Assembly: GCF_039769035.1 (NCBI RefSeq)
Contig: NZ_JBDMZG010000023.1
Span: 4,429-68,428, forward strand
Source: Pacificibacter sp.
Lineage (GTDB): Bacteria > Pseudomonadota > Alphaproteobacteria > Rhodobacterales > Rhodobacteraceae
DNA length: 64,000 nt
Direction: 5' to 3'
The translations under genes and the position numbers were made by a program. Of the stretch, positions 14,773 to 35,516 are shown piece by piece. The notes under the pieces were generated by a model. The model did no database searches and was not told where the DNA came from. It was given only the letters and a program-made list of their open reading frames with translations. Within the stretch, counting starts at the first letter, position 1; each line of letters starts with the position of its first letter.

Positions 14773-15810
14773 ATGAAAAAGAATACGACACTTGCAATTG
14801 CAGTGGGTCTTGCGGGCGCAGCCTTGGCTCCAACTGCATCATTCGCGCAGAGCGCGACGGTTCAGCAGATTATGGATCGCGGGACTATGTTGTGCTCTGG
14901 CCACAACGGTAGCTACTTCGGTTTTGTCGAAGTGAACGACAAGAACGAATGGAAAGGTCTTGATATCGACCTTTGCCGTGCAATGACCACCGCGATTCTT
15001 GGTGATCCAGACAAGGCGCAAATTGTGCCGCTTAGCTGGGCCCAACGTTTCCCTGCACTTCAGTCCGGCGATGTCGATATCATTATTAAGGCGACAGGTT
15101 GGACAATGGGCCGCGATACAGAGCTTGGTCTTCAGTTCAGCTTGCCTTACTTCTTTGGTGGGACACAGTTCATGGTCCACGGTGATCTGGGTATCTCGGA
15201 CTCGTCCGGCCTCGAAGGCGGTACCGTTTGTGTTGAAGCGGGTACAACGATTGAACGTATTTCCGCAAACTACCTTCAGACCGCTGGCGTTGAGCACACC
15301 ATGGTGTCCTACGAAAGCGCGGCTGAACTTCGTGCGGCATATCTTGCAAATCGCTGTGATGCCTTTGCGGGTTGGGGCCCAAGTCTGGCGGTTCTACGCG
15401 CGACCGAACTCGATAACCCAGACGCACACGTCATTCTGAATGACCAACTCTCGAGCGAGCCAATCGCAGCAGCAATGCGTCAAGGCGATGAAGGTTTCGT
15501 TGATATGGCGAACTGGACAATCGCGGCGCTTTTGATTGCCGAAGAAGAAGGCGTCACCTCTGCGAATGTCGAAGAAATGGCCGCAACACCTCCGAACCCT
15601 AAGGTGGCACGCCTTCTTGGTGTTGAACCGGGAATGGGCGAGCGTCTTGGCATCCGTGATACTTGGGCGCGTGAAATGATCGCAGCAGTTGGTAACTTCG
15701 GTGAAATCTACGATCGAAACCTCGGTTCTGAAAGCCCGTACAATCTTGAGCGTGGCTTGAACAATCTCTGGAGCCACGGCGGCGTTCTTTACGCTCCGAT
15801 CCTTGACTAA
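14773..15810 (+). CDS. Amino-acid ABC transporter substrate-binding protein (AapJ/BztA-like)
   Basis: Signal peptide; GLDIDLCRA, RFPALQSGDVD, SSEPIAAAMRQGD, VGNFGEIYDRNLG and ERGLNNLW..GGVLYAP. Confidence 0.9.
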   Translation: MKKNTTLAIAVGLAGAALAPTASFAQSATVQQIMDRGTMLCSGHNGSYFGFVEVNDKNEWKGLDIDLCRAMTTAILGDPDKAQIVPLSWAQRFPALQSGDVDIIIKATGWTMGRDTELGLQFSLPYFFGGTQFMVHGDLGISDSSGLEGGTVCVEAGTTIERISANYLQTAGVEHTMVSYESAAELRAAYLANRCDAFAGWGPSLAVLRATELDNPDAHVILNDQLSSEPIAAAMRQGDEGFVDMANWTIAALLIAEEEGVTSANVEEMAATPPNPKVARLLGVEPGMGERLGIRDTWAREMIAAVGNFGEIYDRNLGSESPYNLERGLNNLWSHGGVLYAPILD

Positions 15811-15821
15811 ACAGTATATGG

Positions 15822-15845
15822 ACCGCCCAATCGATATTGGGCGGT
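15822..15845 (+). terminator. Stem-loop after the SBP gene
   Basis: ACCGCCCAAT-CGAT-ATTGGGCGGT. Confidence 0.6.
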
Positions 15846-15867
15846 TCACTTATATTTGGGGGCTAAT

Positions 15868-17004
15868 ATGACGACAACAGAAGTGCTTCGAAAGAAGAGT
15901 AGACAGCGAAAAATTACGATACAAGTATTGCTTGTTATCATCTCAATCATAGCGATTTGGGGGGCAGTGAGCAGTGCCCAAGTCAACCTTGCTGCGCTAG
16001 GAATTACGAACGGTTTTGGGTTTTTAGATCGCAGTACAGGCTGGGACTACAGCTTTTCTCTGGTCGAGCGATCCATCAATGATCCCTATTCAAAGACTTT
16101 GGTGATAGGATTTCAAAATACGATTTTCGTCGGTTTTATTTCCATCTTTTTTGCAACGATTTTTGGCTTCATCATCGGAACTGGACGCGATTCATCCCAT
16201 CCTGGCGTGAAGGCCGCCGCAACAGTTTTTGTACAAACGTTCCGTAATATTCCTTTGATTTTGCAAGGCGTTTTCCTTTACTCAGTTCTCATACATTTCC
16301 CAGGACCGCGCCAATCCATGTCATTCGCTGACAGTGTATTTTTGTCAAATCGTGGGCTTATGTTGCCAGGCTTAAATGTATCGCCTAGCGTCGCGGTCGC
16401 TTTGATTTTGGCCATAGCTAGCGTGGCTGTGCTTTTGGTGTGGAGAAAGGTGCCTTTGCTGCGTGGTTTGATAATTTGGATTGCTGCGGCCATCTCGATG
16501 TCTGTGATTGTTGCGTTTGTGATGCGTCCCGAGGGTGAGCCGTTGTTGTCAATCCCATCATTGAAAGGGCTTCGATTTAATGGGGGCATAACCGTTTCTA
16601 TTGAACTCGTAGCGATGATCACAGCGATCACATTGTACGGAAGTGCGTATATCGCAGAAGTTGTGCGCGGTGGCCTCAAACAAGTGCCCCGTGGTTTGAT
16701 TGAAGCGGGGCAGGCTGTGGGACTAACACAAGGTCAAATTTGGCACCGCATCAAGATGCCCATGTCGCTACGCAGCATCATTCCGCCATTGGGCAATCAG
16801 TGGATTTTCATCATGAAAGCCACCACCATCGGTATCGCTATTGGCTTTAGTGATATGTTCTACATTGTATCGAATTCCATTACGCAATCTGGGCAGACGC
16901 TTGAACTTATCTTCTTGTTGATGGCGGCGTTTCTTACCGTGAATTTTTCAATCTCAATTTTTACGAATTGGTTGAACAATCGACTAAAGCTAAAGGCACA
17001 CTAA
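15868..17004 (+). CDS. Amino-acid ABC permease (AapQ/BztB-like)
   Basis: GFGFL, FRNIPLILQ, AYIAEVVRGG..VPRGLIEAG (EAA loop) and IIPPLGNQ. Confidence 0.9.
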   Translation: MTTTEVLRKKSRQRKITIQVLLVIISIIAIWGAVSSAQVNLAALGITNGFGFLDRSTGWDYSFSLVERSINDPYSKTLVIGFQNTIFVGFISIFFATIFGFIIGTGRDSSHPGVKAAATVFVQTFRNIPLILQGVFLYSVLIHFPGPRQSMSFADSVFLSNRGLMLPGLNVSPSVAVALILAIASVAVLLVWRKVPLLRGLIIWIAAAISMSVIVAFVMRPEGEPLLSIPSLKGLRFNGGITVSIELVAMITAITLYGSAYIAEVVRGGLKQVPRGLIEAGQAVGLTQGQIWHRIKMPMSLRSIIPPLGNQWIFIMKATTIGIAIGFSDMFYIVSNSITQSGQTLELIFLLMAAFLTVNFSISIFTNWLNNRLKLKAH

Positions 17005-17005
17005 G

Positions 17006-18088
17006 ATGGCACATACTCAAAAATTATCTCCCAACCGCTTTCACGCCTATATGGCGTCTTTCTCAAAACGCGCTTTCGGGACCCCATCTGCAGCAGTTTT
17101 GTCCATCGTCATTTTTGGCGCTCTCGGGTATTGGACTTGGCTTGCGGTTGATTGGGCCATTTTTCGAGCGGTGTGGTCCGCCGAAAATGTTGCCCACTGT
17201 ACCGAAGAGGCGGGTGCCTGTTGGTCTGTGATTGATGCGCGCCATCGCCTGATCCTCTTCGGTCTTTATCCCTATGAGGAACATTGGCGATCTACATTTG
17301 CTTGCCTGTCCATTATTGCGACAGTGATCATTTCTTGTTTTCCGGCCACCTGGACGGCGAAGCGACTCACAAGCCTTTGGGTGGCAGGATTTGCTGCATA
17401 TTATCTCCTGATGGAAGGGAGCTTGCTGGGCCTTGCGCAGGTTACAACGGATGGGTGGGGCGGGCTTTCCCTCACGTTATTTCTGTTTGCGTCTGTTGTT
17501 CTATTGGGCATGCCTATGGGGCTTGGCTTGGCGTTGATGCGCCGCTCTGAGATGCCTGTTGTGCGTAGCTTTGCGGTGATCGTGATCGATACAATTCGTT
17601 CATTGCCTCTTTTGACTACACTGTTTACCGCGGCTGTCGTCGTTCCAATCCTTTTGCCAAGCTGGCTTGAAGGTGACAAGATTTGGCGCGTTATCATCGC
17701 GTTTTCTTTGTTCTTTGGCTGTTATCAGGCCGAAGTTTTCAGAGGCGGTTTTCAGGCCATTCCGAAAGGGCAATTCGAAGCCGGCAAGGCCCTTGGTATA
17801 GGGTATTGGAAGATCATGGCGCGCATCATTTTGCCGCAAGTGTTCCGCCATGCTTTGCCAAGTACCATCAATATGGTTGTTGTGACGTTTAAAGAGACAG
17901 CCATCGTGATCATCATCGGCTTCTTTGATGTATTGGCATCGGCCAAGGCTGCTTTCGGGACAGGCGAGTGGGCGCCGCATTACATGGAGGTCTATGTCTT
18001 TGTCGGTGCGATATATTGGACATTCATCTTTTCGCTCGGCCAGTATGGCGAGTATTTGAAAGGAAGAATGGCCTTATCGACGCACTAG
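17006..18088 (+). CDS. Amino-acid ABC permease (AapM/BztC-like)
   Basis: GACW, YPYEEHWR, WGGLSLTL, AEVFRGGFQAIPKGQFEA and FKETA. Confidence 0.9.
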   Translation: MAHTQKLSPNRFHAYMASFSKRAFGTPSAAVLSIVIFGALGYWTWLAVDWAIFRAVWSAENVAHCTEEAGACWSVIDARHRLILFGLYPYEEHWRSTFACLSIIATVIISCFPATWTAKRLTSLWVAGFAAYYLLMEGSLLGLAQVTTDGWGGLSLTLFLFASVVLLGMPMGLGLALMRRSEMPVVRSFAVIVIDTIRSLPLLTTLFTAAVVVPILLPSWLEGDKIWRVIIAFSLFFGCYQAEVFRGGFQAIPKGQFEAGKALGIGYWKIMARIILPQVFRHALPSTINMVVVTFKETAIVIIIGFFDVLASAKAAFGTGEWAPHYMEVYVFVGAIYWTFIFSLGQYGEYLKGRMALSTH

Positions 18089-18106
18089 CGACCTAGGAGG
18101 TGCAAA

Positions 18107-18146
18107 GAAAAGGGGCGAAGAGGTAAAACCCGCTTCGCCCCTTTTC
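18107..18146. terminator. Bidirectional rho-independent terminator
   Basis: GAAAAGGGGCGAAG-N12-CTTCGCCCCTTTTC between convergent operons. Confidence 0.8.
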
Positions 18147-18167
18147 TATTGGATCAAGTGTTGGGTA

Positions 18168-18413: not shown

Positions 18414-19298
18414 TCACAACGCATCAATTGGCACAGTAAGCGTCATGTTACCGTCTTTATCTTTGGGAACTTCGCCGGCGCGCATATTGACTTGGAGCGA
18501 CGGAATAATCAATTTTGGCATGCCAAGGGTCGCGTCGCGGGCTTCGCGCATGGAGACGAACTCTTCACGAGACGCCCCTTCACCAACATGGATATTCGCT
18601 TTCTTTTGTGCGCCGATGGTCGTCTCCCAACGGATTGCGCGCCCATTGGGGCCGTAGTCGTGACATACAAACAGTCGCATTTCTTCAGGGAGAGCAAGAA
18701 CGCGTTCGATTGAATCGAACAACTCACCGGCATCGCCTCCAGGAAAATCCGCCCGCGCGGACCCGCCATCTGGCATGAATAATGTATCACCCGTAAAGAC
18801 CGCATCCCCTATGACATGCACCATACAGGCCGGCGTATGTCCGGGCGTATGCATGGCAAAACAAGTCATTTTGCCGACATTATAAACCTGATTGTCCGTG
18901 AACAGACAGTCGAACTGTGTGCCGTCCCGTTGGAATTCGGTGCCAGCATTAAAGATCTTTCCAAAGGTTTCTTGCACAGTCAGGATATGTTCACCGATCC
19001 CGATTTTACCGCCCAGTTTTTTCTGTATATAGGGCGCGCCAGATAGGTGATCTGCGTGAACATGTGTTTCAATAATCCATTCAAGTCTAAGCCCGCGTTC
19101 GGTTATGAATGCGATGATCTGATTCGCGGTATCAAAGCTGAGGCGTGCAGCCGCGTAATCAAATTGCATGACAGCATCAATGACCGCGCAAGACGTGCTT
19201 GCGGGGTCTTTGATGACATAGCTTATTGTGTTGGACTGCGCATCGAAGAATGCCGTTACGTCTGGCTTTTGATCCAGAGATGCAATTGGATGTTCCAT
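18414..19298 (-). CDS. MBL-fold persulfide (sulfur) dioxygenase, ETHE1/Blh type
   Basis: ETHVHADHLS, TPGHTPAC, GDTLFMPDGGSARADFPGG, CHDY and PKLIIPSLQVNMRAG. Confidence 0.85.
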   Translation of the reverse strand: MEHPIASLDQKPDVTAFFDAQSNTISYVIKDPASTSCAVIDAVMQFDYAAARLSFDTANQIIAFITERGLRLEWIIETHVHADHLSGAPYIQKKLGGKIGIGEHILTVQETFGKIFNAGTEFQRDGTQFDCLFTDNQVYNVGKMTCFAMHTPGHTPACMVHVIGDAVFTGDTLFMPDGGSARADFPGGDAGELFDSIERVLALPEEMRLFVCHDYGPNGRAIRWETTIGAQKKANIHVGEGASREEFVSMREARDATLGMPKLIIPSLQVNMRAGEVPKDKDGNMTLTVPIDAL

Positions 19299-19313
19299 GC
19301 CCGTCTTCCTTTT

Positions 19314-19952
19314 CTAATCGAGAGTTACAGCGCCTTTTGGTGTACTTAGATCAAAGGACAACGCGGCGGGGCCCTCGCTGACATTGGCCAAGTGATCGAC
19401 CTTGAGTGCTTTCAAAACTTCCAACAGTTCAGACGGGTTTGGGTGGGCCAAATGAACCTTGTCCAAGGTCACGCCCAAATCTTGTTGGCCTGTGCTTGGA
19501 TGGGGCCCTGGCGACCATTCGATGAACGCAGGCAACAAACCTCCCATCGGCAAGCTTCCGTCTTTTGGTACAGTCAAACGCCATGAGCGATCACCGCGCG
19601 TGAACAGTACCACTTCGCCCAGATCCACGGGGCTCGCGGCGATGACCGCATCCAGATCGTCGGTCCCAACGACCCAGCACAATGCACGAGGACGGGTTTT
19701 TAGGCGGGCTTGGGTGGCACGGTCATCCAGCGTGAACCAACGTACCCGCCCTGGATCGGCTGGTGCGTCGGGATCGATCGCGATAAGTTCAAAGAAGCTC
19801 TCGTTGCCTGATTGCATCACACAATTATGCGTGCTCATCGCGTCGTGTTTGCCGCCGCGTGGAACTTCGACGCCAAGGACGTCCTTCAGGCTTTCGATAC
19901 CTTGCTCCAAGCTGTCGGCGCCAATCGCAAAGTGGTCAATTTTGTTGTGCAT
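19314..19952 (-). CDS. VOC/glyoxalase-like domain protein
   Basis: IDHFAIGA..GGKHDAMSTHN..FELIAIDP..PAFIEW. Confidence 0.8.
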   Translation of the reverse strand: MHNKIDHFAIGADSLEQGIESLKDVLGVEVPRGGKHDAMSTHNCVMQSGNESFFELIAIDPDAPADPGRVRWFTLDDRATQARLKTRPRALCWVVGTDDLDAVIAASPVDLGEVVLFTRGDRSWRLTVPKDGSLPMGGLLPAFIEWSPGPHPSTGQQDLGVTLDKVHLAHPNPSELLEVLKALKVDHLANVSEGPAALSFDLSTPKGAVTLD

Positions 19953-19977: not shown

Positions 19978-21153
19978 CTATGAATTCAAAAGAGGTAACG
20001 CGGCCTGCAGGTCTGCTTTCAGGCTATCTGTGTCTTCAAGGCCGATGTTAAACCGCACCAAGGCACCGGTCTCAGTCCAAGCTTTCGCGCTGCGCATGGG
20101 GTCAACGGGCAATACAAGGCTCTCGTATCCACCCCAGCTCACGCCGATACCAAAATGATGCAGGGCGTCGACAAAATCGCGGATTTGTGCCGCGCTGCAG
20201 GGGTGAAAAATCACGGAGAACAGACCTGCGGCGCCGGTGAAGTCACGCTTCCAGAAATCGTGGCCGGGGCAACTCTCAAAGGCTGGGTGCAGAACAGTCT
20301 TTACTTGTTTTTGTTGTCCCAGCCATGTCGCGATTTCACGGCCGGCCTTGTCAAAATACTCCATGCGGACCTTAAGCGTTCTAAGCCCGCGCAAGGCGAG
20401 GAAAACTTCGTGTGATCCTGGCTTGTCGCCGATTGCAAAAACGGTCTTACGTATCTGATCATGGTACATGGTATTGCTCGCGATCATGCCCATCATGCAA
20501 TCTGAATGCCCGCTGATGTATTTTGAGCAAGAGGCGACCACGACATCGCAGCCCAGATCAAGGGGTTTGCAAAACAACGGCGTGGCCCAAGTGCTATCGA
20601 TAATCGAGGGGATAGAGGCATCGCGTGCGGCTTTTGCAATGGCCGGAATGTCAGGTATTTCAAAGGTGCCCGACCCTGGGGCTTCGAGCATAATGGCGCA
20701 GGTTGTTTCACGAATTAAATCGTAGATATCTGTGCCGATCATGGGATCGTAGTATTCAATCTCAACGCCCATGCGGCTCAAAACGCCATCACAAAAGGCG
20801 CGCGTGTTGCCGTAGACGTGATCGGCGACCAATAGGTGTTTTCCCGGGGCAACGAATGTCATCAACGCCGTAGAGATGGCCGCCACGCCGGATGATGTTA
20901 AGGTGACACCGCGTGCGTTTTCGAGATTGGCAAGTAGCGCTTCCAGTTGAAATGAGGCGTCATTTCCATACCGCCCATAGTAAAGGGTACCGGATGCGTA
21001 GCGCGCATCGCGTGCGCTCTCAAAACTTGCCATACTGTCAAAGACAATCGTCGAGCCAAGCTCAATAGGCATGTTAACATGACGACCATCGACACGGGGA
21101 GGCCTACCGTTTTGCACGAGAGCATCGGCGTTATTTCTTGTATCTGAAGGCAT
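19978..21153 (-). CDS. PLP-dependent C-S lyase, cystathionine beta-lyase (MetC)-like
   Basis: GSTIVF, YGRYG, DSTWATP, SKYISGHSD (PLP lysine), RGLRTL and GVSWGGYESL. Confidence 0.85.
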   Translation of the reverse strand: MPSDTRNNADALVQNGRPPRVDGRHVNMPIELGSTIVFDSMASFESARDARYASGTLYYGRYGNDASFQLEALLANLENARGVTLTSSGVAAISTALMTFVAPGKHLLVADHVYGNTRAFCDGVLSRMGVEIEYYDPMIGTDIYDLIRETTCAIMLEAPGSGTFEIPDIPAIAKAARDASIPSIIDSTWATPLFCKPLDLGCDVVVASCSKYISGHSDCMMGMIASNTMYHDQIRKTVFAIGDKPGSHEVFLALRGLRTLKVRMEYFDKAGREIATWLGQQKQVKTVLHPAFESCPGHDFWKRDFTGAAGLFSVIFHPCSAAQIRDFVDALHHFGIGVSWGGYESLVLPVDPMRSAKAWTETGALVRFNIGLEDTDSLKADLQAALPLLNS

Positions 21154-21203: not shown

Positions 21204-21241
21204 CTGTGTCAATATGCAGAAAATATGTTCACTATAGCAGC
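21204..21241 (-). promoter_or_regulatory. Promoter/operator block of the C-S lyase operon (TTGACA -35)
   Basis: Minus strand GCTGCTATAGTGAACATATTTTCTGCATATTGACACAG; 28/38 identical to 24856-24893. Confidence 0.6.
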
Positions 21242-21254
21242 ACGTGAGAGTTGA

Positions 21255-23591
21255 ATGCCTAAGATTGAAACAAAGATTACTGCAAACCACTGGGGCGTTG
21301 GTGTCGCTGTGGTTGAAGATGAAAAAATTCAATCGGTCGCTGGGCATTGCGAGGATCCAAATCCGTCGCGGATCAACGATAATATCGCAAGCAGCTTGCA
21401 TGGCGATGCGCGTATCACGCGTCCAGCCGTGCGCAAATCATGGCTTGAGAACGGTCCCGAAGGGCGCGGTACAAGCGGCGAAACAGCACGCGGTCGCGAT
21501 GGCTTTGTCGAAGTCAGTTGGGATACGGCTCTCGATTTGATTGCCAAAGAACTTAGACGTATTCGTGAGGCGTATGGGAATGGAGCAATTTTTGCCGGTT
21601 CATATGGTTGGTCAAGCGCCGGACGCTTTCATCACGCCCAGAGTCAACTGAAGCGTTTTTTGAACACGCAGGGCGGGTTCGTGCGTTCAGAGGGTAACTA
21701 TAGCTATAATGCGGCCCTTGTCCTGATGCCGCATATCGTTGGGCCGTACCGACAACATGTTGTGGACGCGACCCGCTGGCCGGTCATTGCCAAACACAGC
21801 GATCTTGTTGTGTGTTTTGGTGGCATCGCACAGCGCAATACTCAAGTCAGCGATGGTGGCGTTGCGCGTCATCGGATGAAAGATAACTTGACCCTATGCA
21901 AGGACGCGGGCGTTGAGTTTGTCAACATCAGCCCATTACGCAGCGATATCTTAGAGACACTTGATGCTGTCTGGATGCCACCATTGCCGGGTTCTGACAC
22001 TGCATTGATGTTGGGGCTCGCGCATACCTTGCTAACCGAAGGTCTGCATGATGTTTCGTTTTTGGATAAATACACCGTCGGCTTTGACCGCGTCGCAGCG
22101 TACATTCTGGGCAAAACCGATGGCCAGCCAAAAGACGCCGCTTGGGCTGCGGCACAATCGGGAATCGACGCCGAAGACATTGCGGCCCTCGCTCGAAAAA
22201 TGGCGTCGTCCCGTACGATGATCAGTATTGCCGCGGGGGTACAGAGGGCAGATTATGGCGAACAACCCCTTTGGATGGGAGTGACTTTGGCAGCGATGCT
22301 GGGGCAAATCGGCTTACCTGGTGGCGGATATGTGATTGGGTACGGCGTGAACGCGAACATCGGGAATGTAGAGCGCCCATTTCGGTGGGGCGCCTTTTCA
22401 CAACTCAAGAACCCGCACGATGACTTTATCCCAGTCGCGATGATTTCCGAGATGTTACTAAGTCCCGGGAAAAGCTATGATTACAACGGGCGTAAACGGA
22501 AATTCCCCCATGCGCGTATGGTCTGGTGGGCCGGAGGAAACCCTTTTCATCATCACCAAGACCTGAATAGGTTACACGAGGCGTTCCAGGCCCCCGACAC
22601 CGTGATTGTGAATGAGCTGAATTGGACCGCAACCGCGCGTCATGCGGATATCGTTTTGCCGATTGCGTCTGCGCAAGAACGTACAGACTTTGGCGCAGGG
22701 AAATCAGACAATGCCCTTGTTCCGATGCCTGCATTAATCAAGCCGGTGGGCGAGGCGCGGATGGAATATGACATCTATGCAGACCTCGCAGGGCGTCTTG
22801 GAAATGCCGAGGCGTTTACGGAGGGGCGCAGCAGTGAAGACTGGTTGCGGTGCATTTGGCAACAAACGCAATCTACGGCTTCGAAGGCCGGTATTGATCT
22901 GCCGAACTGGGATGAATTTATCTCTGGGGACGTTGTGCATGTGCCAGATCCAGCGCCTGAGCAAGTATTTCTGGACAAATTTCGTGCCGATCCGGTGGCA
23001 AATCCCTTGTCGACCCCAAGCGGCCGCATCCAGCTATTCTCGCAAACCATTGCGTCGTTTGGTCGCCCTGACTGCCCAGGCCATGCGGCGTGGTTCGCGC
23101 CACGGGATGTGGCAGCCGGAGCGGAACAAAAATACCCACTGTATATGTTGTCGGGGCAACCAAAAACGCGGTTGCACAGCCAGCTTGATAATGGCGACTA
23201 TAGTAAAAGCCATAAGATCAAGGATCGCGAGCCGGTGCTGCTTCATCCAAGAGATGCGGCTGAGCGTGGGATTGAGCATGGAGATATCGTTGAGCTCTAC
23301 AATGATCGCGGGCGTTGTCTTGCTGGTGCAAAAATAACCGATGAAGTCCGCGAGGGCTGTGTCTTTTTGTGGACGGGAGCTTGGTATGATCCCGATTTCA
23401 ATGCGCCGCAAAACCGTGATCGACATGGAAATCCGAATGTTTTAACCCATGATCTTCGCACATCGTCCCTTAGTCAAAGCACGGCGGCACATTCAACCTT
23501 GTTGAATGTACGTAAGTTTGAAGGTGTATTGCCAAAAATCACGGCTCATTCAGCTCCTGACTTCCTGTTTCGGAATGAACCTGATACTTGA
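21255..23591 (+). CDS. Cytoplasmic bis-MGD molybdoenzyme, BisC/DMSO-reductase clade (S-oxide reductase-like)
   Basis: NHWG start with no Tat peptide or FeS cysteines; GSYGWSSAG, NYSYNAA (Ser ligand), WAGGNPFHHHQD, RLHSQL and GNPNVLT. Confidence 0.88.
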   Translation: MPKIETKITANHWGVGVAVVEDEKIQSVAGHCEDPNPSRINDNIASSLHGDARITRPAVRKSWLENGPEGRGTSGETARGRDGFVEVSWDTALDLIAKELRRIREAYGNGAIFAGSYGWSSAGRFHHAQSQLKRFLNTQGGFVRSEGNYSYNAALVLMPHIVGPYRQHVVDATRWPVIAKHSDLVVCFGGIAQRNTQVSDGGVARHRMKDNLTLCKDAGVEFVNISPLRSDILETLDAVWMPPLPGSDTALMLGLAHTLLTEGLHDVSFLDKYTVGFDRVAAYILGKTDGQPKDAAWAAAQSGIDAEDIAALARKMASSRTMISIAAGVQRADYGEQPLWMGVTLAAMLGQIGLPGGGYVIGYGVNANIGNVERPFRWGAFSQLKNPHDDFIPVAMISEMLLSPGKSYDYNGRKRKFPHARMVWWAGGNPFHHHQDLNRLHEAFQAPDTVIVNELNWTATARHADIVLPIASAQERTDFGAGKSDNALVPMPALIKPVGEARMEYDIYADLAGRLGNAEAFTEGRSSEDWLRCIWQQTQSTASKAGIDLPNWDEFISGDVVHVPDPAPEQVFLDKFRADPVANPLSTPSGRIQLFSQTIASFGRPDCPGHAAWFAPRDVAAGAEQKYPLYMLSGQPKTRLHSQLDNGDYSKSHKIKDREPVLLHPRDAAERGIEHGDIVELYNDRGRCLAGAKITDEVREGCVFLWTGAWYDPDFNAPQNRDRHGNPNVLTHDLRTSSLSQSTAAHSTLLNVRKFEGVLPKITAHSAPDFLFRNEPDT

Positions 23592-23612: not shown

Positions 23613-24383
23613 ATGACAGATACGCCGCCTAAGACGCCCAAAGTTGACTCTACCCTCTCCAAGGGATTGAGCATTCTTGAAAACTTGGCACATGCCCCAT
23701 CAGGCAAGGGCGTTACCGAGTTATCGGTGGAGTTGGGTCTTACGAAATCTAACACATTTCGCCTTTTGCAGAGTCTCACAACACTTGGATATGTCAAACA
23801 CTTGGAAAGCAAAGCTTATGCCGCGACGTTGAAGACGTGGCAAATTGGACGAGCTTCGGTTGATAATTTGAACCTGCGCGAACTGGCCGCGCCTGAGATG
23901 TCATTCCTGTCCAAGGAAACCGGCGAGACGATTTATCTGGCCGTTCCTGAACATCTTGGGATCGTCTATATAGATAAGATTGAGAGCCAAAAACCCATCC
24001 GGTCTTGGAGCCCGATTGGCGGCGAAGCGCCGATTCATTGCGTGGGTACCGGGAAGGCCATCTTGGCGGCGAATTATGGTAGCATGCGCGAACGCATTAA
24101 GGGGCAACTGACCCGACATACGGAAAAGACAATATCCTCTATTGCGGCCCTTGATGATGATATAAATGCGACGCTTGCCCGAGGATATGCCGTAGACCAA
24201 GGCGAATTTCGCGAGCGCATTTGGAGTCTTGGGGCAGCGATTACGCTTCCCAGTGGAGAAAGCATAGCGTCGTTGGGGATTTCGTTGCCAGATGTGAGTA
24301 TGCCCGAAAACGGGTTAGATAGATATGGATCTTTGGTTGCCAATTGCGCCGAAAGCGTATCTGCGAAACTGGCGCGCCGCTAA
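23613..24383 (+). CDS. IclR-family regulator
   Basis: TLSKGLSILE..GVTELS..LTKSNTFRLL; PIHCVGTGKAILA; RGYAVDQGE. Confidence 0.92.
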   Translation: MTDTPPKTPKVDSTLSKGLSILENLAHAPSGKGVTELSVELGLTKSNTFRLLQSLTTLGYVKHLESKAYAATLKTWQIGRASVDNLNLRELAAPEMSFLSKETGETIYLAVPEHLGIVYIDKIESQKPIRSWSPIGGEAPIHCVGTGKAILAANYGSMRERIKGQLTRHTEKTISSIAALDDDINATLARGYAVDQGEFRERIWSLGAAITLPSGESIASLGISLPDVSMPENGLDRYGSLVANCAESVSAKLARR

Positions 24384-24843: not shown

Positions 24844-24855
24844 AAAGACCTCTGT

Positions 24856-24893
24856 GCTGATATATAGAACTTATATATCATATATTGACACAG
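24856..24893 (+). promoter_or_regulatory. Promoter/operator block of the FAD-oxidase operon
   Basis: TGATATATA-GAACT-TATATATCA palindrome (24858-24880) abutting TTGACA (24885-24890). Confidence 0.65.
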
Positions 24894-26229: not shown

Positions 26230-26231
26230 CT

Positions 26232-28319: not shown

Positions 28320-29962
28320 GCCCGACAGCAATCGATTATCAAATCATGTGGAACCGCTTGATTGCGGTTGTCGAAGAACAAGCCACGACATTGATCCGAA
28401 CCGCTTTTTCAACCTCAGTGCGCGAAGCGGGCGATTTGTCGGCAGGGCTTTTTGATCGCCAAGGCCGAATGATGGCGCAGGCGGTCACCGGCACGCCAGG
28501 TCACGTGAACGCAATGGCCGAGAGCGTGACGCATTTTGTACGTGAGCTGGGACTGGATAACGTATTTGAAAACGACGTTTTCATCACCAACGACCCATGG
28601 CTTGGCACGGGGCACCTTCACGACATTACGGTTGTGTCGCCAACGTTTCGCAACGGCCAACACATCGGTTTCTTTGCCTGTACTGCGCATGTTGTGGATA
28701 TTGGTGGTCGGGGTTTTGGGCCTGACGCGAACGAAGTGTATGAAGAGGGTCTCTTGATCCCGATCATGAAGTTCGCCGAACGGGGAAACGTGTCCAAGGA
28801 TCTTATCCGTATGGTGCGCTCTAACGTGCGTGAACCGGATCAAGTGGTCGGCGATCTTTATTCTCTAGCGGCCTGTAACGAGGCAGGGGATCGCCGCTTA
28901 CAGACCATGATGGGCGAATTTGGCATCTCTGATCTGGAGGGTCTGTCGGATTTCGTGATTGAGACATCGCGCAAAGCCACCCATGAGGCCATCGCCAAAG
29001 TTCCCGATGGCACGTTTCGTCATTCTATGCAGGTGGATGGGTATGATGCACCGGTCAATATGGTTGTGCGTTTGGATGTCGCTGGGGATAAAATCAAAGC
29101 CGATTTTGATGGTACCTCAGGCATGAGCCGCTTTGGCGTAAACGTTCCCGAGGTCTACACACGTGCCTATGCGTGCTATGGCTTGAAATGCGCGATTGCG
29201 GCAGAGGTGCCGAATAACACGGGTTCACTTGAACCCTTTGAAATTACCGCTCCTGAGGGATGCATCTTGGCCGCGCGTCGACCTGCTCCGGTTTCGGTGC
29301 GCCATGTCTTGGGACATTTGGTGCCTGATGTGGTGCTGGGCGCTTTGCACCAAGCGATGCCCGACACAGTTCCCGCCGAGGGGGCAAGCGCACTTTGGAA
29401 TATCCAAATTTCGGCACGCGCCAGTGATCCCGCAAGCGGTTTGCCGAATGCCGAGGTCCTGATGTTCAACTCTGGCGGGACAGGGGCCCGCCCAACATTG
29501 GACGGATTGTCTGCGACGGCCTTCCCATCTGGTGTGTCGACGATGAGCGTCGAAGCGACCGAGCACGTTGGCCCGATCACAGTGTGGCGAAAAGATCTTC
29601 GTGAGGGATCAGGCGGGGCGGGGGCCTTTCGGGGCGGCCTTGGTCAGAACATCGAAATCGAACCCCGCGAAGGCTATGACTTTTACTTTAACGCCATGTT
29701 CGATCGGGTGGAAAATCCCGCGCGCGGTCGCGAAGGTGGCCATGCGGGTGCCAAGGGACAGGTCGAACTTTCAGATGGCACCAAGATGAGAAGCAAGGGG
29801 CGCCAGTTGGTCAAAAATGGCCAACGTCTCAAACTCAGCCTCCCAGGAGGGGGCGGATATGGCGCGCCAAGCGCGCGCGACAAAACGGAAGTGGCCCAAG
29901 ATCTGGCCGCTGGATTCATCACAGAAGAGCAAGCGACCGGCGTTTACGGTCTGAAAAAGTAG
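28316..29962 (+). CDS. Hydantoinase B / 5-oxoprolinase catalytic subunit
   Basis: RTAFSTSVREAGDLS, NDPWLGTGHLHD, HVVDIGG, EEGL, SGGAGAFRGG and PGGGGYG; ATGA-coupled to subunit A. Confidence 0.92.
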   Translation: MSPTAIDYQIMWNRLIAVVEEQATTLIRTAFSTSVREAGDLSAGLFDRQGRMMAQAVTGTPGHVNAMAESVTHFVRELGLDNVFENDVFITNDPWLGTGHLHDITVVSPTFRNGQHIGFFACTAHVVDIGGRGFGPDANEVYEEGLLIPIMKFAERGNVSKDLIRMVRSNVREPDQVVGDLYSLAACNEAGDRRLQTMMGEFGISDLEGLSDFVIETSRKATHEAIAKVPDGTFRHSMQVDGYDAPVNMVVRLDVAGDKIKADFDGTSGMSRFGVNVPEVYTRAYACYGLKCAIAAEVPNNTGSLEPFEITAPEGCILAARRPAPVSVRHVLGHLVPDVVLGALHQAMPDTVPAEGASALWNIQISARASDPASGLPNAEVLMFNSGGTGARPTLDGLSATAFPSGVSTMSVEATEHVGPITVWRKDLREGSGGAGAFRGGLGQNIEIEPREGYDFYFNAMFDRVENPARGREGGHAGAKGQVELSDGTKMRSKGRQLVKNGQRLKLSLPGGGGYGAPSARDKTEVAQDLAAGFITEEQATGVYGLKK

Positions 29963-29970
29963 GACATGAC

Positions 29971-30723
29971 ATGAGCAAACAACCAATCGCATTGGTCACG
30001 GGCGCCGCCCAAGGGATCGGCTATGCCTGTGCAGAAGCCATCGCAGAAGATGGTGCAAAGGTGATTTTGGCAGATATCAACGCCGAAGGTGTCGCGGCAG
30101 CGGCCGATAAACTTGGTGGTGGTGCCGTTGGCATGGCCTGTGACATGGGGGATCCTGCGCAGATCGAAGCCATGTTCGACGCAATCGAAGCAGAGCATGG
30201 CCCTGTTGAAATTCTTGTGAACAACGCGGGCATCGCGATGCCGGGAGATTTTCTTGAAACGTCGCTCGAGAGCTTTCAAAAGGTGATCGACGTTAATCTC
30301 ACTGGGACGTTCCTTGCACTTCAACGTGCTGCAAAAACCATGGCCGCCAATAACATTGAGGGCGCGATTGTGAATATGTCGTCCATCAATGCGGTCGTCG
30401 CAATCCCGTCAATCCCTGCGTATTGTGCCTCAAAGGGCGGTGTGATGCAGTTGACCAAGGCGACGGCGCTGGCATTGGCTCCGCACAATATTCGGGTGAA
30501 TGCTGTTGGACCTGGTTCGATCGATACCGAAATGATGGCCGGCGTGAATGCAAACCCAGAAGCCATGAAAATGGTTATGTCGCGTACGCCTCTGAAACGT
30601 GTCGGCGAGCCACGTGATATTGGCGATGCCGTCGCATTTCTCGCGAGCAAAAAAGCCAAATATATCACTGGCGAAACCATCTATGTGGATGGTGGGCGCA
30701 TTGGTATGAACTACACGTGCTGA
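29971..30723 (+). CDS. Short-chain dehydrogenase/reductase
   Basis: TGAAQGIG, NNAG, SSINA and YCASK. Confidence 0.92.
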   Translation: MSKQPIALVTGAAQGIGYACAEAIAEDGAKVILADINAEGVAAAADKLGGGAVGMACDMGDPAQIEAMFDAIEAEHGPVEILVNNAGIAMPGDFLETSLESFQKVIDVNLTGTFLALQRAAKTMAANNIEGAIVNMSSINAVVAIPSIPAYCASKGGVMQLTKATALALAPHNIRVNAVGPGSIDTEMMAGVNANPEAMKMVMSRTPLKRVGEPRDIGDAVAFLASKKAKYITGETIYVDGGRIGMNYTC

Positions 30724-30728
30724 GGTAA

Positions 30729-32648
30729 ATGATGTCGAAATACCCACAAACCTATGCCGATTGGCAGGCGGATCCCGCGGCCTTTTGGGCCAATGCCGCT
30801 AAAGCAATTGATTGGTTCACCCCGCCGACGTCCACGTTCAATGCCGACAAAGGCGCCTATGGGCGTTGGTTTGATGGGGCGACATGCAATACCTGTTACA
30901 ACTGCGTTGATCGCCATGTCGAAGCCGGCCACGGCGACCGCGCGGCTGTTATTTATGATAGCCCTGTTACGGGAACCGCGAAAACCTATTCCTATGCCCA
31001 AACCAAGGACGAGGTCAGCGCGTTGGCGTCTGTTCTGCGTGGGCTAGGCGTCACCAAAGGTGATCGTGTTATTATATACATGCCAATGGTGCCTGAGGCG
31101 ATCTTTGCGATGCTGGCCTGTGCGCGCCTTGGTGCGATCCATTCGGTTGTATTCGGTGGTTTTGCTGCGCGCGAATTGGCAACCCGAATTGACGATGCTG
31201 CTCCAAAAGCGATCATTTCGGCGTCCTGTGGGATCGAGACAAATCGGGTGATCGCCTATAAGCCGTTATTGGATGAAGCGATTGAAATCGCATCGGCCAA
31301 GCCTGATCACTGTGTGATCTTGCAACGCGATACCCAGTCATGTGAGCTGATCGAAGGGCGCGATGTTGATTACGCGCAATCGGTTCAATCTGCCATTGCG
31401 GCTGGCGAGGGTACAGAATGTGTGCCGGTCGAGGCGACTGATCCGCTTTATATCCTTTATACATCGGGTACGACGGGCCAGCCCAAAGGCGTTGTTCGCG
31501 ACAATGGCGGGCATATGGTCGCGCTGCGTTGGTCGATGGAGTATCACTATGATATCAAACCGGGAGAAACCTTCTGGGCCGCCTCTGATGTGGGTTGGGT
31601 CGTTGGCCATTCCTATATCTGCTACGGACCATTGCTGAATGGCAGTGCAACGGTTGTCTTTGAGGGCAAACCCGTTGGCACACCGGATGCTGGGGCGTTC
31701 TGGCGCGTGATCCAAGACCACAAAGTCGCGGCGATGTTCACCGCACCGACCGCGCTTCGCGCGATCAAAAAGGTTGATCCCTCGGGGCTGCTTATTCAGG
31801 ATTACGATCTAAGCAACTTCAGGACCTTGTTCTTGGCGGGTGAACGATCTGATCCGGCGACGATTGAATGGGCGCAGGAGAAACTCGACCGTCTTGTTAT
31901 CGACCATTGGTGGCAAACCGAAACCGGATGGGCCATGTCTGGCAACCCTGTGGGGCTGGGGGCATTTCCGATCAAGCTTGGTTCACCTGGGAAACCAATG
32001 CCTGGTTACGATATCCGTGTGCTGGATGACGAGGGTAACCCTGTAGAAGCTGGTACGTTGGGGAATATCGTCTGCAAGCTACCGTTGCCCCCTTCGGGAT
32101 TTCCTACATTGTGGAATGCTGAAGAGCGTTTCCGATCCTCCTATATGGAGGAGTTCCCTGGGTATTATGCGACATCTGACGCTGGTATGATCGACGAAGA
32201 CGGATATGTTTTTATCATGGCGCGCACAGATGACATCATCAATGTCGCAGGGCACCGGTTGTCCACCGGCGCGATGGAGGAAGTTATCTCGGGGCATGAA
32301 GACATCGCCGAATGCGCAGTGGTGGGTGCAGCCGATGCGCTTAAGGGACAGATGCCGCTCGGATTTTTTGTTGTGAACGATGGTGTGGATCGCGACCCTG
32401 CTGACTTGGAAAAAGAACTGGTTCAGTTGGTCCGTGCCAAGATTGGCGCAGTTGCGGCGTTTAAATTGGCTGTGCCGGTAAAACGTTTGCCCAAAACGCG
32501 ATCAGGCAAAGTGTTGCGTGGGACGATGCAAAAAATCGCAAACGGCGAGACTTACAAGATACCCGCAGCGATTGATGACACAATGATTTTAACCGAAATC
32601 CACGAGGCGCTTGGCGCACGAAACTTGATTGGAAAACCCAATGATTGA
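30729..32648 (+). CDS. prpE: Propionyl-CoA synthetase-like acyl-CoA ligase
   Basis: [32 protein letters not shown] and LPKTRSGK. Confidence 0.82.
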
Positions 32649-32985
32649 ACGCATTCACACATCTGAACGCATGAGCAAAATCGTCAAACACAACGGTGTC
32701 GCCTACCTTTGTGGTCAAGTCGGCGCGGGTGACAGCGTCGCCGAGCAAACCGCTGACTGTCTGGCGCGTGTAGATGCGCTTCTTGCGGAGGCAGGCTCAG
32801 ACCGCGAACACATTCTTCAGGCTGTAATTTGGGTGTCTGACATGGCTCATTTCGCTGAAATGAACGCGGTTTGGGATGCTTGGGTGCCTGCCGGCCATGC
32901 GCCTGCCCGCGCCTGCGGCGAAGCCAAGCTTGCCCGCGATGTGTTGAAGGTAGAAATCATCGTTACCGCCGCCGTTAAATCGTAA
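32641..32985 (+). CDS. RidA (YjgF/Rid) family imine/enamine deaminase
   Basis: [31 protein letters not shown] and VEIIVTAA. Confidence 0.88.
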
Positions 32986-33000
32986 ACAAAAGGATCGCCT

Positions 33001-33738
33001 ATGACTTATGCAGTAGAAATGAAAGATGTGAACAAGTTTTACGGAACGTTTCATGCCTTGAAGGGCATTAATCTTTCGGTGAAAAAGGGTGAGAAAATCG
33101 TGGTTTGCGGGCCGTCTGGTTCAGGTAAGTCAACGATGATCCGCACGATCAACCAGCTCGAAGAGCATCAATCCGGCGAGATATTGATCAACGGTGACCC
33201 GATCAACGCCGATGCGCCAAATATCGAAGAAATGCGTCGTGAGGTGGGGATGTGTTTCCAGCATTTTAATCTCTTCCCGCATCTGTCCATTTTGGAAAAC
33301 TGCACGCTTGCACCGATGCTTGCGCGTAAAGAAACCCAAGCAGATGCAGAGGCGACCGCGATGGCATTCTTGGAAAAAGTTCAAATCGCCAACCAAGCCG
33401 ACAAATTTCCAGGTCAACTGTCTGGCGGTCAACAACAGCGTGTTGCGATCGCGCGGGCACTTTGCATGAAGCCGGAAATTTTGCTCTTTGATGAACCGAC
33501 TTCGGCGCTTGATCCCGAGATGATTGGTGAGGTTTTGGATGTCATGGAAACATTGGCCCAAGAAGGCATGACGATGGTCTGCGTGACGCATGAAATGGGT
33601 TTTGCGCGCAAGGTTGCTGACCGTGTTATCTTTATGGATGCCGGGGAAATCATCGAAGAAAGCGATCCGGAAACTTTCTTCACCTCGCCAGCCAATGAGC
33701 GGACACGGAACTTCTTAGATCAAGTTCTCACTCACTAA
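33001..33738 (+). CDS. Amino-acid ABC ATP-binding protein (AapP/BztD-like)
   Basis: [45 protein letters not shown] and THEMGFA. Confidence 0.93.
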
Positions 33739-33779
33739 TAAACTAGCGGCGCTTCAGCGACACGCAAACTCGAGGGCTC

Positions 33780-35516
33780 GTGATGATACACAACTACGTT
33801 CCGATATTGTCGTGGGGCCGGCGTTATTCGAAAAAGATAATGCTGGAGGATCTGCTTGCTGCTGTGATCGTCACGGTCATGCTTATCCCGCAATCTTTGG
33901 CCTATGCATTGCTTGCTGGCCTGCCTCCCCAGGCAGGCCTATATGCGTCCATAGCGCCGATCATCCTCTATGCGATCTTTGGGACAAGCAGCGCACTTGC
34001 CGTTGGTCCTGTTGCTGTTGTCTCCCTGATGACCGCCGCAACGCTCAGCCAGATCGCTGAACAAGATACAATGGGATACGCGATTGCAGCGCTTTCTCTG
34101 GCGGGATTGTCCGGGCTTATCTTGCTTGTGATGGGCATGCTTCGCCTTGGATTTGTCGCGAATTTTCTTTCTCATCCGGTGATGTCCGGGTTTGTCTCGG
34201 CATCAGGGATTATTATTGCCGCAAGCCAAATTCAACATATCCTCGGCATCGACGCGTCTGGCCAAAGCCTGTGGCAGTTAATGCAGTCATTGAGTAAAAA
34301 CATTTCGCAAACAAACATCTATACGGCCGTGATTGGCGTTGGTGCTACTGCATTTTTGTTCTGGATGCGGCTTGGGTTGAAGCCACTTTTGAGTAGGCTA
34401 GGGGTAGGGGCACCCTTGGCTGGGGTCGTCGTCAAGATTGGACCTATTTTCGTTGTCGTTCTCACAACCCTCGCTGTATGGCTCGCGGGACTGATGAACA
34501 AAGGTGTCCGAATTGTCGGGGAGGTACCTCAGAGTTTGCCTCCATTGACGTTCCCGTCTTTGTCCACAGAGTTATTAGATGCATTGGTGATGCCAGCGGT
34601 CTTAATCTCGATCATTGGTTTCGTGGAATCTATTGCTGTGGCCCAAACTCTAGCGGCTAAAAAACGCGAGCGAATTGACCCAGACCAGGAGTTGATTGGA
34701 TTGGGCGCTGCGAATATCGGTGCATCTCTCACGGGTGGTTTCCCGGTGACCGGCGGTTTCTCTCGGTCGGTGGTGAATTTTGATGCGGGGGCTGCAACAC
34801 CTGCGGCGGGGGCCTTTACGGCGATCGGGTTGGCCTGTGCCGCGCTTTTCTTGACCCCACTGATCTATTTCCTACCTAAGGCAACACTGGCGGCCACGAT
34901 CATTGTCGCTGTGGCGAATTTGGTTGATTTCAGTATTCTACGCCGGAGCTGGTCGTATTCAAAACCGGATTTTGCGGCCGTGTTCGTGACACTCATTCTG
35001 ACCTTGGGGTTCGGCGTTGAGGCCGGTGTCTCAGTCGGAGTAGGGGTGTCAATTTTGCTCCATTTATACCGGACATCAAAGCCCCATATTGCCGAAGTTG
35101 GTCTTATTGAAGGAACGGAACATTTTCGTAATGTGCTGCGACATGACGTTCAGACGGATCCGAGCGTGGTCAGCCTGCGTGTCGATGAAAGCCTTTATTT
35201 CGCCAATGCGCACTACCTAGAAGAGGCGATCTACAATAGGGTTATGGGGGATGCAGCGGTACGTCATGTGATCTTGCAATGCTCAGCGGTGAACGACATT
35301 GATCTCAGCGCGCTTGAGGCACTGGAGACGATTAACAAGGTACTAAATGAGATGGATGTGAAACTTCATCTTTCAGAAGTGAAAGGTCCAGTTATGGATC
35401 ATCTTGGATCGGAGCAATTCTTAAGCGACCTCACAGGCTTTGTTTTTCTCTCTCAATTTGAAGCCGTAAAAGCGGTAGGTCGACATTCAAAAGATGAAAC
35501 TTTGCCCACTCGTTAA
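33780..35516 (+). CDS. SulP-family anion permease with STAS domain
   Basis: IPQSLAYA, GLY, GPVAVVSL, GGFSRS and RVDESLYFANA. Confidence 0.92.
   Translation: MMIHNYVPILSWGRRYSKKIMLEDLLAAVIVTVMLIPQSLAYALLAGLPPQAGLYASIAPIILYAIFGTSSALAVGPVAVVSLMTAATLSQIAEQDTMGYAIAALSLAGLSGLILLVMGMLRLGFVANFLSHPVMSGFVSASGIIIAASQIQHILGIDASGQSLWQLMQSLSKNISQTNIYTAVIGVGATAFLFWMRLGLKPLLSRLGVGAPLAGVVVKIGPIFVVVLTTLAVWLAGLMNKGVRIVGEVPQSLPPLTFPSLSTELLDALVMPAVLISIIGFVESIAVAQTLAAKKRERIDPDQELIGLGAANIGASLTGGFPVTGGFSRSVVNFDAGAATPAAGAFTAIGLACAALFLTPLIYFLPKATLAATIIVAVANLVDFSILRRSWSYSKPDFAAVFVTLILTLGFGVEAGVSVGVGVSILLHLYRTSKPHIAEVGLIEGTEHFRNVLRHDVQTDPSVVSLRVDESLYFANAHYLEEAIYNRVMGDAAVRHVILQCSAVNDIDLSALEALETINKVLNEMDVKLHLSEVKGPVMDHLGSEQFLSDLTGFVFLSQFEAVKAVGRHSKDETLPTR

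Follow-up and report, generated by a model that had tools for sequence, protein, structure and literature searches.

A co-inherited gene cluster of Rhodobacteraceae, probably a regulon for an organosulfur amino compound

The question raised by this locus is whether a dense block of transport, redox and sulfur genes in the genome of Pacificibacter sp. (Rhodobacteraceae) forms one functional unit and, if so, which compound it handles. The window, meaning the whole stretch of DNA analysed, is 64,000 nucleotides long (assembly GCF_039769035.1, contig NZ_JBDMZG010000023.1, positions 4,429 to 68,428) and belongs to a 3.4 Mb genome with 52% GC. The block occupies positions 14773-35516 of the window. 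The original prediction, made from the bare sequence, had named 16 gene families in this block and joined them in a catabolic pathway for a sulfoxide-containing amino or imino acid. All 16 families were recovered between these limits when the open reading frames (ORFs) were scanned with Pfam and NCBIfam models. The block is one co-inherited functional unit, and the grouping goes far beyond chance because of synteny across genera and classes, a common operator and strict co-occurrence. Gene identities, co-conservation, co-inheritance and the common operator are observations. That the block is a single regulon for an organosulfur amino compound is, in our judgement, very probable.

In the ORF listing the limits of the block coincide exactly with the start codon of the binding protein gene (14773) and the stop codon of the SulP gene (35516). 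Spacing between same-strand genes inside the units ranges from -20 to +45 bp, which fits four transcription units. Unit 1 (plus strand, 14773 to 18088) encodes an SBP_bac_3 binding protein and two permeases resembling AapQ and AapM. Unit 2 (minus strand) encodes a MetC-type lyase (21153-19978), a Glyoxalase_3 protein of the VOC family (19952-19314) and a persulfide dioxygenase (19298-18414). Unit 3 (plus strand) consists of a BisC-family molybdenum (Mo) enzyme (21255-23591) and an IclR regulator (23613-24383). Unit 4 (plus strand, 24955-35516) runs through a DAO-family oxidase, HyuA, HyuB, a short-chain dehydrogenase/reductase (SDR), a PrpE-like ligase, a Rid protein, an ABC ATPase and SulP. 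The rhodanese gene (24843-24442, minus strand) stands alone outside the four units.

The importer genes connect the two ends of this layout. The periplasmic binding protein (14773-15810, plus strand; PF00497) is that of an AapJ-like ABC importer for polar amino acids, and its top PDB match is the amino-acid-binding protein 4z9n (275 bits). It is syntenic in other genera at 74-88% identity. The two AapQ/AapM-like permeases (15856-17004 and 17006-18088, plus strand; PF00528 and HEQRo permease domain) are syntenic there too. The importer ATPase (33001-33738, plus strand; PF00005, GlnQ-like at 311 bits) is encoded ~15 kb from these permeases, inside the catabolic operon, and is syntenic in other genera at 83-90% identity. 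Because the ATPase sits at the far end of the catabolic operon, both ends of the block are tied together.

Conservation was examined in a family sample of 401 Rhodobacteraceae genomes, one per genus, and in the surroundings of oxidase orthologs, where each cluster gene was scored with a tblastn presence matrix and the deposited gene calls. ORF calling by length or by third-position GC content (GC3) proved too noisy in related loci, given the high-GC genomes and this 52% GC genome, and was not used. The oxidase ortholog group is cleanly separated: about 40/401 genomes (~10% of Rhodobacteraceae genera) carry a match of at least 53% identity, and every other match is at or below 47%. These more distant paralogs, the true Pseudomonas AmaA included, were never found with the neighbours described here.

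The order binding protein-permease-permease / VOC-MetC / Mo-IclR / rhodanese / DAO-HyuA-HyuB-SDR-PrpE-RidA-ATPase is repeated in at least nine other genera. Marinovum algicola FF3, a Roseovarius, two Sulfitobacter-like genomes, Leisingera aquimarina and several further genera carry the full set from binding protein to ATPase in the same order at 60-90% identity. A nearly identical cluster (oxidase 100%, other genes 98-100%) exists in two assemblies, one deposited as uncultured Halocynthiibacter sp. and the other as uncultured Rhodobacteraceae bacterium. Pararhizobium sp. IMCC3301 keeps the enzyme genes from VOC to SDR in order, with no Aap-type importer genes adjoining. An uncultured Vibrio carries MetC-VOC-DAO-HyuA-HyuB followed by IclR, an MFS transporter, SDR and the Mo enzyme, at 50-70% identity and in changed order; this copy adjoins a phage-type integrase (L058:4953-6128). 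Retention of the genes despite rearrangement, in another class and with another transporter, strongly supports a functional link.

Identities of the neighbours follow that of the oxidase with r = 0.8-0.95 (HyuA, HyuB, Mo enzyme, MetC, VOC, IclR, rhodanese, binding protein and ATPase), as expected if the gene set moves as one block. VOC orthologs occur in 11/401 genomes, and 11/11 of these also carry an oxidase ortholog. Public sequence data yielded 827 VOC homologs, the best 120 of which are at least 79% identical. Co-conservation of the genes as one functional unit, on which the original prediction depended, was thus borne out by the synteny, the Vibrio copy and the co-occurrence. Mobile-element traces edge the cluster in three lineages: the Vibrio integrase, an IS110 transposase in Leisingera aquimarina (L127:14235-14732) and, in the present window, a truncated recombinase remnant (35570-36535) that follows SulP and retains the Zn-ribbon domain only.

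How much of the block belongs to its conserved heart was assessed by counting oxidase neighbours in 56 non-redundant related loci, some of which are cut by contig ends. SDR was found beside the oxidase in 33/56 loci, rhodanese in 29/56, HyuB in 25/56 and IclR in 22/56. The Mo enzyme (14/56), VOC (12/56), MetC (10/56), the ligase (10/56), the importer genes (9-10/56) and the Rid protein (8/56) are less frequent. The conserved heart therefore consists of oxidase and SDR. Rhodanese usually joins them, HyuAB and IclR often do, and the full form adds the sulfoxide reductase, lyase, VOC protein and importer. Compared with the earlier reading of the whole gene set as one pathway, this heart is smaller, and the cluster is modular. 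Transporters differ among lineages, being of Aap, MFS or TRAP type.

Several variant loci illustrate this modularity, and plasmid copies among them mark the cluster as mobile. A plasmid copy in strain SC52 comprises rhodanese, oxidase and SDR only. Two metagenome-assembled genomes (MAGs) of Sulfitobacter and Shimia (L003 and L007) have IclR-rhodanese-DAO-HyuA-HyuB-SDR whole, and VOC, Mo enzyme, ligase or ATPase as fragments with 9-70% coverage and no N runs; this looks like a full cluster decaying to the core module. Plasmid p449297 of Paracoccus seriniphilus carries the set minus the Mo enzyme. There (L129:5116-8448) MetC-VOC has on its own strand, 143 bp downstream, an annotated hypotaurine-pyruvate aminotransferase gene (tpa), after which comes an aldehyde dehydrogenase gene; tpa may point to an aminoethyl-sulfur intermediate in this variant. 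A Hyphomicrobiales MAG (L050:5384-7945) combines Mo-IclR-DAO-SDR with an unknown 195-amino-acid protein, a family III coenzyme A (CoA)-transferase, an enoyl-CoA hydratase and an Aap-type ATPase, and has no HyuAB and no PrpE-like ligase. Neighbours of the reduced clusters are mostly unrelated (cyclase, TRAP or peptide ABC systems, Xaa-Pro peptidase, alkaline phosphatase, DnaJ) and gave no clue to the substrate, save for the variant with CoA-transferase and enoyl-CoA hydratase.

Are the separate units regulated together? A 38-bp similarity is shared by both divergent promoter regions, MetC/Mo and rhodanese/oxidase. The copy at 24854-24891 (plus strand, GTGCTGATATATAGAACTTATATATCATATATTGACAC; matrix score 54.7 bits) supplies the -35 element of the oxidase operon. 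Its counterpart at 21206-21243 (minus strand; 46.4 bits) includes TTGACAC, the -35 element facing MetC, and overlaps the likely Mo promoter (ATGACA, 17 nt, CAATAT). Sixteen loci retain the block GTGCTGATATAtaGAACAnnTATTTCAtATATTGACAC between rhodanese and oxidase, and 10 loci have it inverted between MetC and Mo; the flanking sequence is variable. Its conservation in both divergent promoters spans at least 10 genera.

The genome was scanned with a matrix built from these instances. Two sites scored above 18 bits, and both are the cluster sites just described. With the first 18 matrix positions alone the two known sites rank 1-2, and rank 3 is a site 20 bp upstream of the start codon of the binding protein gene. 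This importer half-site took no part in matrix building. It belongs to a promoter at 14691-14753 (plus strand) in which 17 nt separate TTGACT from CATGCT; the half-site GTGCTGACATACAGCACA comes next, at 14736-14753. Upstream of the binding protein gene in nine other genera we found TTGACTC, 17 nt, a -10 element and an inverted pair of GTGCTGATATAC-like half-sites. The fourth-ranked half-site, in a gene end upstream of dnaK, has no second half and no promoter and was set aside as chance.

By these sequence criteria all three promoter regions appear to be governed by a common operator, which amounts to predicted co-regulation. The putative binder of the operator, a repressor in the proposed regulon, is likely the cluster's own IclR protein (23613-24383, plus strand; PF09339 and PF01614), whose gene is probably co-transcribed with that of the Mo enzyme. 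The 38-bp block was found at promoters of loci that carry this IclR gene or are close to one.

What compound, then, would such a regulon handle? The oxidase (24955-26229, plus strand; PF01266) is a flavin adenine dinucleotide-dependent amine oxidase of the DAO family. It scores 447 bits against the L-pipecolate oxidase AmaA model NF050086, below the cutoff of 600, and the Vibrio ortholog scores 456. A Pseudomonas homolog that is ~42% identical to the oxidase passes this model with 738 bits. The cluster oxidase is thus a member of a sister subfamily of true AmaA. AmaA acts on a six-ring imino acid by oxidising its C-N bond distal to the carboxylate. A known parallel is the L-pipecolate branch of lysine catabolism in P. 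putida (AmaA, AmaB), and both routes would start with oxidation of a six-ring imino acid. No AmaB-type aldehyde dehydrogenase was found among the cluster genes in the Pfam and NCBIfam scans; in its place, unlike the P. putida route, the cluster has the SDR and an ATP-dependent lactamase, plus an S-oxide reductase and a C-S lyase.

The SDR (29971-30723, plus strand; PF13561) is the most constant partner of the oxidase and directly follows it where HyuAB is absent. Among the families that it matches best are glucose 1-, pyridoxal 4- and rhamnose 1-dehydrogenase, enzymes that turn a ring-closed hemiacetal into a lactone. These matches are compatible with a predicted oxidation of a carbinolamine to a lactam, though they are commonplace among SDRs.

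The HyuA/HyuB pair (26226-28319 and 28316-29962, plus strand) carries the Pfam HyuA and HyuB domains (PF01968, PF05378, PF02538). It scores 455 bits against CapA (NF050156) and 198 bits against CapB (NF050157), both below the cutoffs of 1000, and its PDB matches are N-methylhydantoinase (204 bits) and caprolactamase 6yra (140 bits). HyuAB is assigned on this basis to the ATP-dependent hydantoinase/oxoprolinase/caprolactamase family of cyclic-amide hydrolases and appears to be none of the named members. It shares the two-subunit HyuA/HyuB architecture and the proposed ATP-driven lactam opening with caprolactamase CapAB, N-methylhydantoinase and 5-oxoprolinase, but falls far under the equivalog cutoffs of the CapAB-type hydrolases and has other genomic partners.

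The Mo enzyme (21255-23591, plus strand) is a cytoplasmic molybdopterin S/N-oxide reductase of the BisC/MtsZ/DorA type. It scores 919 bits with TIGR00509, under the cutoff of 1017.55, and the Vibrio ortholog reaches 947. Neither an RR motif nor a Tat leader is present at the N-terminus (MPKIETKITANHWG), and the alignment starts at the start of mature DorA. Full-length alignment to its best PDB match 7l5i, which we take to be the Haemophilus methionine-sulfoxide reductase MtsZ, and to DorA (1e18) places FAGSYGW and GNYS opposite GSYGW and GDYS. The Ser ligand of Mo and the Tyr/Trp funnel pair of S-oxide reductases are kept. The genome holds a single enzyme of this type. Fold and the GSYGW and YS motifs are common to BisC, MtsZ/TorZ (7l5i) and DorA, and like BisC the cluster enzyme is a soluble single subunit without a Tat leader; in contrast to these enzymes, whose setting is repair, scavenging or respiration, it is part of a catabolic regulon that includes a regulator gene.

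The lyase (19978-21153, minus strand) is a MetC-type, pyridoxal phosphate-dependent C-S β-lyase. It passes the cystathionine β-lyase model TIGR01324 (412 bits, cutoff 365.9) and does not reach narrower MetC equivalogs, for example NF006538 (394 versus 655). Its top PDB matches are cysteine-S-conjugate β-lyase and MetC (279-284 bits), and the genome has no other close MetC-type gene. The Rid-family enamine/imine deaminase (32629-32985, plus strand; PF01042, 84.7 bits) scores 54 bits against the cutoff of 106 for TIGR00004 and has the catalytic Arg in a PAR motif. Lyase and Rid protein occur in the same regulon, as in the known partnership of MetC and RidA. Unlike MetC, the lyase lies under a catabolic operator, is always paired with the uncharacterised VOC protein and stands outside a methionine-biosynthesis context.

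The VOC protein (19314-19952, minus strand; PF13468) is always encoded beside the MetC-like gene, and the contexts of distant homologs are unrelated. Residues D6, H7, H36, T41, N43, E55 and W146 are invariant in 100 homologs; the invariant His and Glu residues are typical of metal-binding VOC enzymes. An AlphaFold2 model from 24 close orthologs was unusable (pLDDT 56), whereas the 100-sequence alignment gave a pLDDT of 97. Fold matches of this second model are generic (TM ~0.5) and include the uncharacterised 3p8a, 4-hydroxyphenylpyruvate dioxygenase (HPPD), methylmalonyl-CoA epimerase and glyoxalase I.

The short-chain acyl-CoA ligase (30729-32648, plus strand) is a PrpE paralog that reaches neither PrpE cutoff (NF007815, 727 versus 955 bits; TIGR02316, 692 versus 827). 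A second PrpE-type copy on contig C57 is 64% identical to it and is presumably the housekeeping PrpE.

Three further genes are candidates for sulfur oxidation and transport. The single-domain rhodanese (24442-24843, minus strand; PF00581), with the active-site loop CASGWR, is divergent from the oxidase operon and is second only to SDR as an oxidase neighbour. The last gene of the MetC-VOC operon encodes a type-II persulfide dioxygenase (18414-19298, minus strand; Blh C-terminal domain, 355 bits). It matches over its full length the PDB entries 9g8t, 4efz and 4ysk (313-347 bits), which we take, in part presumptively, to be persulfide dioxygenases. SulP (33780-35516, plus strand; TIGR00815, 437 bits versus cutoff 380) is an anion transporter with a STAS domain, and a terminator-like hairpin lies beyond it at 35638-35659.

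In the original prediction sulfur oxidation and export formed part of the pathway. This part did not hold up: the dioxygenase is beside the oxidase in 3/56 loci and SulP in 0/56, and the two are lineage-specific additions, appended here to two operon ends. Their probable source is a locus of the same genome on contig C23 (20385-24960) with two YeeE/YedE-like membrane proteins, a persulfide dioxygenase, a DUF442-like protein and SulP, the dioxygenases being 68% and the SulP proteins 64% identical. That locus resembles known sulfide-detoxification modules of persulfide dioxygenase, rhodanese and SulP; in the cluster, by comparison, dioxygenase and SulP are split between the ends of two catabolic operons. 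Three other lineages have added the dioxygenase alone within operons. Recruitment of sulfur genes suggests that the pathway yields reduced or sulfane sulfur, because sulfur-oxidation genes were added inside the operons of some lineages.

Taken together, the enzyme families point to an imported imino acid that has both a thioether S-oxide and a secondary ring amine. A thia-analogue of pipecolate, such as chondrine (1,4-thiazane-3-carboxylate S-oxide), known from red and brown algae, or a ring-size or methyl variant, is our preferred candidate, with about even prospects of being the right class. Thiomorpholine-carboxylates are natural cyclic imino acids (PMC7545470). The original prediction of a sulfoxide-bearing amino or imino acid fits the enzyme set, with its Ser/Tyr/Trp site, the lack of a Tat leader and the AmaA sister oxidase; the identity of the substrate stays an inference.

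Each chemical step of the following scheme is deduced from enzyme families. The AapJQMP-like ABC system would take up the compound, and the cytoplasmic BisC/MtsZ-type enzyme would reduce the S-oxide to the thioether. The AmaA-like flavoenzyme would then oxidise the ring C-N bond distal to the carboxylate, giving a cyclic imine in equilibrium with a carbinolamine, which the SDR would oxidise to a lactam. HyuAB would open the lactam with ATP to an S-(carboxyalkyl)-L-cysteine. The MetC-like lyase would cleave this product to a mercapto-acid and aminoacrylate, the Rid protein would convert aminoacrylate to pyruvate and ammonia, and the PrpE-like ligase would activate the mercapto-acid with CoA. 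The VOC protein may act on the product of the MetC step. Rhodanese would deal with sulfane sulfur, and in this lineage persulfide dioxygenase and SulP would deal with sulfane sulfur or sulfite. In the six-ring series the predicted intermediates are chondrine, thiomorpholine-3-carboxylate, 5-oxothiomorpholine-3-carboxylate, S-carboxymethylcysteine and thioglycolate. The seven-ring homolog would end in 3-mercaptopropionate, which would better suit the propionate-type ligase, the caprolactamase-like HyuAB and the variant with CoA-transferase and enoyl-CoA hydratase.

Several points weigh against this scheme. DAO plus SDR, with or without rhodanese, is the commonest module, and in many genomes it stands without the Mo enzyme, MetC or HyuAB; the substrates of the core may therefore be something other than sulfoxides. 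The plasmid copy in P. seriniphilus DSM 14827 likewise has no Mo enzyme. The scores of the oxidase, the Mo enzyme, HyuAB, the ligase and the Rid protein stay below the curated cutoffs of the named families closest to them. For an SDR that turns a carbinolamine into a lactam there is, to our knowledge, little precedent. The scheme does not explain the roles of VOC and rhodanese, and it leaves the fate of the mercapto-acid ambiguous, since the Hyphomicrobiales variant gives a hint of a C3 thiol acid in place of a C2 one.

Two other organosulfur substrates were weighed, each of which we regard as unlikely. One is an opine-like secondary amine or an N-substituted, pyroglutamate-type lactam with a sulfoxide side chain, derived for example from methionine sulfoxide or an S-alkylcysteine sulfoxide. 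HyuAB would act first on such a compound and the DAO oxidase next, with the Mo enzyme and MetC working on the sulfur half. The logic is that of agropinic and mannopinic acid catabolism on Ti plasmids of Agrobacterium, which uses the oxidase AgaE, the hydantoinase-like lactamase AgaF/AgaG and a dedicated ABC importer. As described, that system resembles the cluster in combining a DAO secondary-amine oxidase, a HyuA/HyuB lactamase and an ABC importer; unlike the cluster it is not known to include sulfur enzymes, a Mo enzyme or a CoA ligase. The oxidase family works on secondary amines generally, transporters vary among lineages, and one related locus joins a fused HyuAB and IclR to a peptide/opine-type ABC system. 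However, the nearest characterised relative of the oxidase, AmaA, is a ring-amine oxidase, the frequent occurrence of DAO plus SDR without HyuAB fits an oxidase-first order, and opine-synthase-like or sugar-handling genes are absent from the cluster.

The other, which carries similarly modest weight with us, is a linear S-(carboxyalkyl)-L-cysteine sulfoxide. It could be the sulfoxide of S-(2-carboxyethyl)cysteine, possibly formed from acrylate and cysteine, or that of S-carboxymethylcysteine; HyuAB would only salvage a spontaneous lactam, and 3-mercaptopropionate or thioglycolate would go to the CoA ester. Here the Mo enzyme, MetC-like lyase, Rid protein and propionate-type ligase suffice, the CoA-transferase III and enoyl-CoA hydratase variant fits elimination of H2S from 3-mercaptopropionyl-CoA, and the seven-ring caprolactamase is the best named match of HyuAB. 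Such a substrate leaves the oxidase and SDR, the most conserved pair, idle, and there is no need in the cluster for a primary-amine oxidase.

Distinctly less probable is a substrate without sulfur, that is a pipecolate-like cyclic imino acid or an N-oxide. The Mo enzyme would then be an N-oxide reductase, and MetC, rhodanese, dioxygenase and SulP would be passengers or sulfur housekeeping. The BisC/TorA family does reduce N-oxides too, TorA models score 608-649 bits on the Mo enzyme, and the DAO-HyuAB-SDR core occurs without MetC in many loci. Yet MetC and VOC are co-inherited with Mo enzyme and oxidase, even in the rearranged Vibrio island, and lie under the same operator. The high frequency of rhodanese beside the oxidase, the insertion of sulfur-oxidation genes within operons and the retained Tyr/Trp pair of S-oxide reductases also argue for a sulfur compound.

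Chance juxtaposition of unrelated operons without a common function, to which the four transcription units on both strands, the recombinase remnant adjoining SulP and the modularity among genomes might point, is highly improbable given synteny in at least nine genera with a rearranged copy in another class, strict 11/11 co-occurrence, one operator at all three promoter regions with no comparable site in the genome, and an importer ATPase placed within the catabolic operon far from its permeases.

The thia-pipecolate scheme would, if correct, be the first catabolic route for algal cyclic thioether imino-acid S-oxides, proceeding by Mo-dependent sulfoxide reduction, flavin-dependent ring oxidation, lactam formation with ATP-driven opening, and C-S β-cleavage, a sequence without precedent. 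Its carriers would be a minority of roseobacters together with scattered Vibrio and Hyphomicrobiales, and the regulon would be mobile. We put this claim forward only tentatively. The genes are deposited under generic names: 'FAD-binding oxidoreductase', 'VOC family protein', 'hydantoinase/oxoprolinase family protein' and a 'cystathionine beta-lyase' labelled with methionine biosynthesis. A full-text literature search found no description of this cluster or of a bacterial pathway for such compounds, in agreement with the original suggestion that the pathway had not been described. All parts come from known enzyme superfamilies, and it is the combination and the predicted route that have no described counterpart.

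The flanks of the block were not counted as parts of it. On the left are a MocR-type regulator and a nitrile-type cluster. The MocR/EhuR-like regulator (12730-14214) was left out, having never been seen beside the cluster elsewhere, where most of the compared loci are too short upstream. In the 560-bp space between this regulator and the importer promoter lies a 107-codon ORF (14290-14613) without a family match, which is probably not a gene. The right flank holds a histidine-utilisation-type cluster (37689-44211, 51061-54589 and 60769-62127) with HutC, HutU, HutG, a HutI-like amidohydrolase, a YeiH-family membrane protein and HutD. Farther right are a histidine/aromatic ammonia-lyase-family gene, an ornithine cyclodeaminase/mu-crystallin-family gene and HutF. 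A tie between the mu-crystallin-family gene and the regulon is conceivable because relatives of mu-crystallin reduce cyclic ketimines, thia-ketimines included; the two are 18 kb apart and the gene has no operator match.

Roseobacters are the main bacterial users of algal organosulfur, and few of their routes are understood (dimethylsulfoniopropionate, sulfonates, taurine). If the substrate is an algal thioether-sulfoxide imino acid, the regulon would constitute a new branch of marine sulfur and nitrogen cycling and would open an organosulfur pool that is so far unaccounted for. It would also give functions to five generically named enzyme subfamilies, and biocatalysis would gain two enzymes, a new ATP-dependent lactamase and a sulfoxide reductase with a catabolic role. 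The regulon is common in marine data and occurs in cultured strains, and its definition extends to the operator. The hypothesis is directly testable because cultured carriers and a defined operator exist. Even with another substrate, the conserved module and its operator provide a handle for finding what that substrate is.

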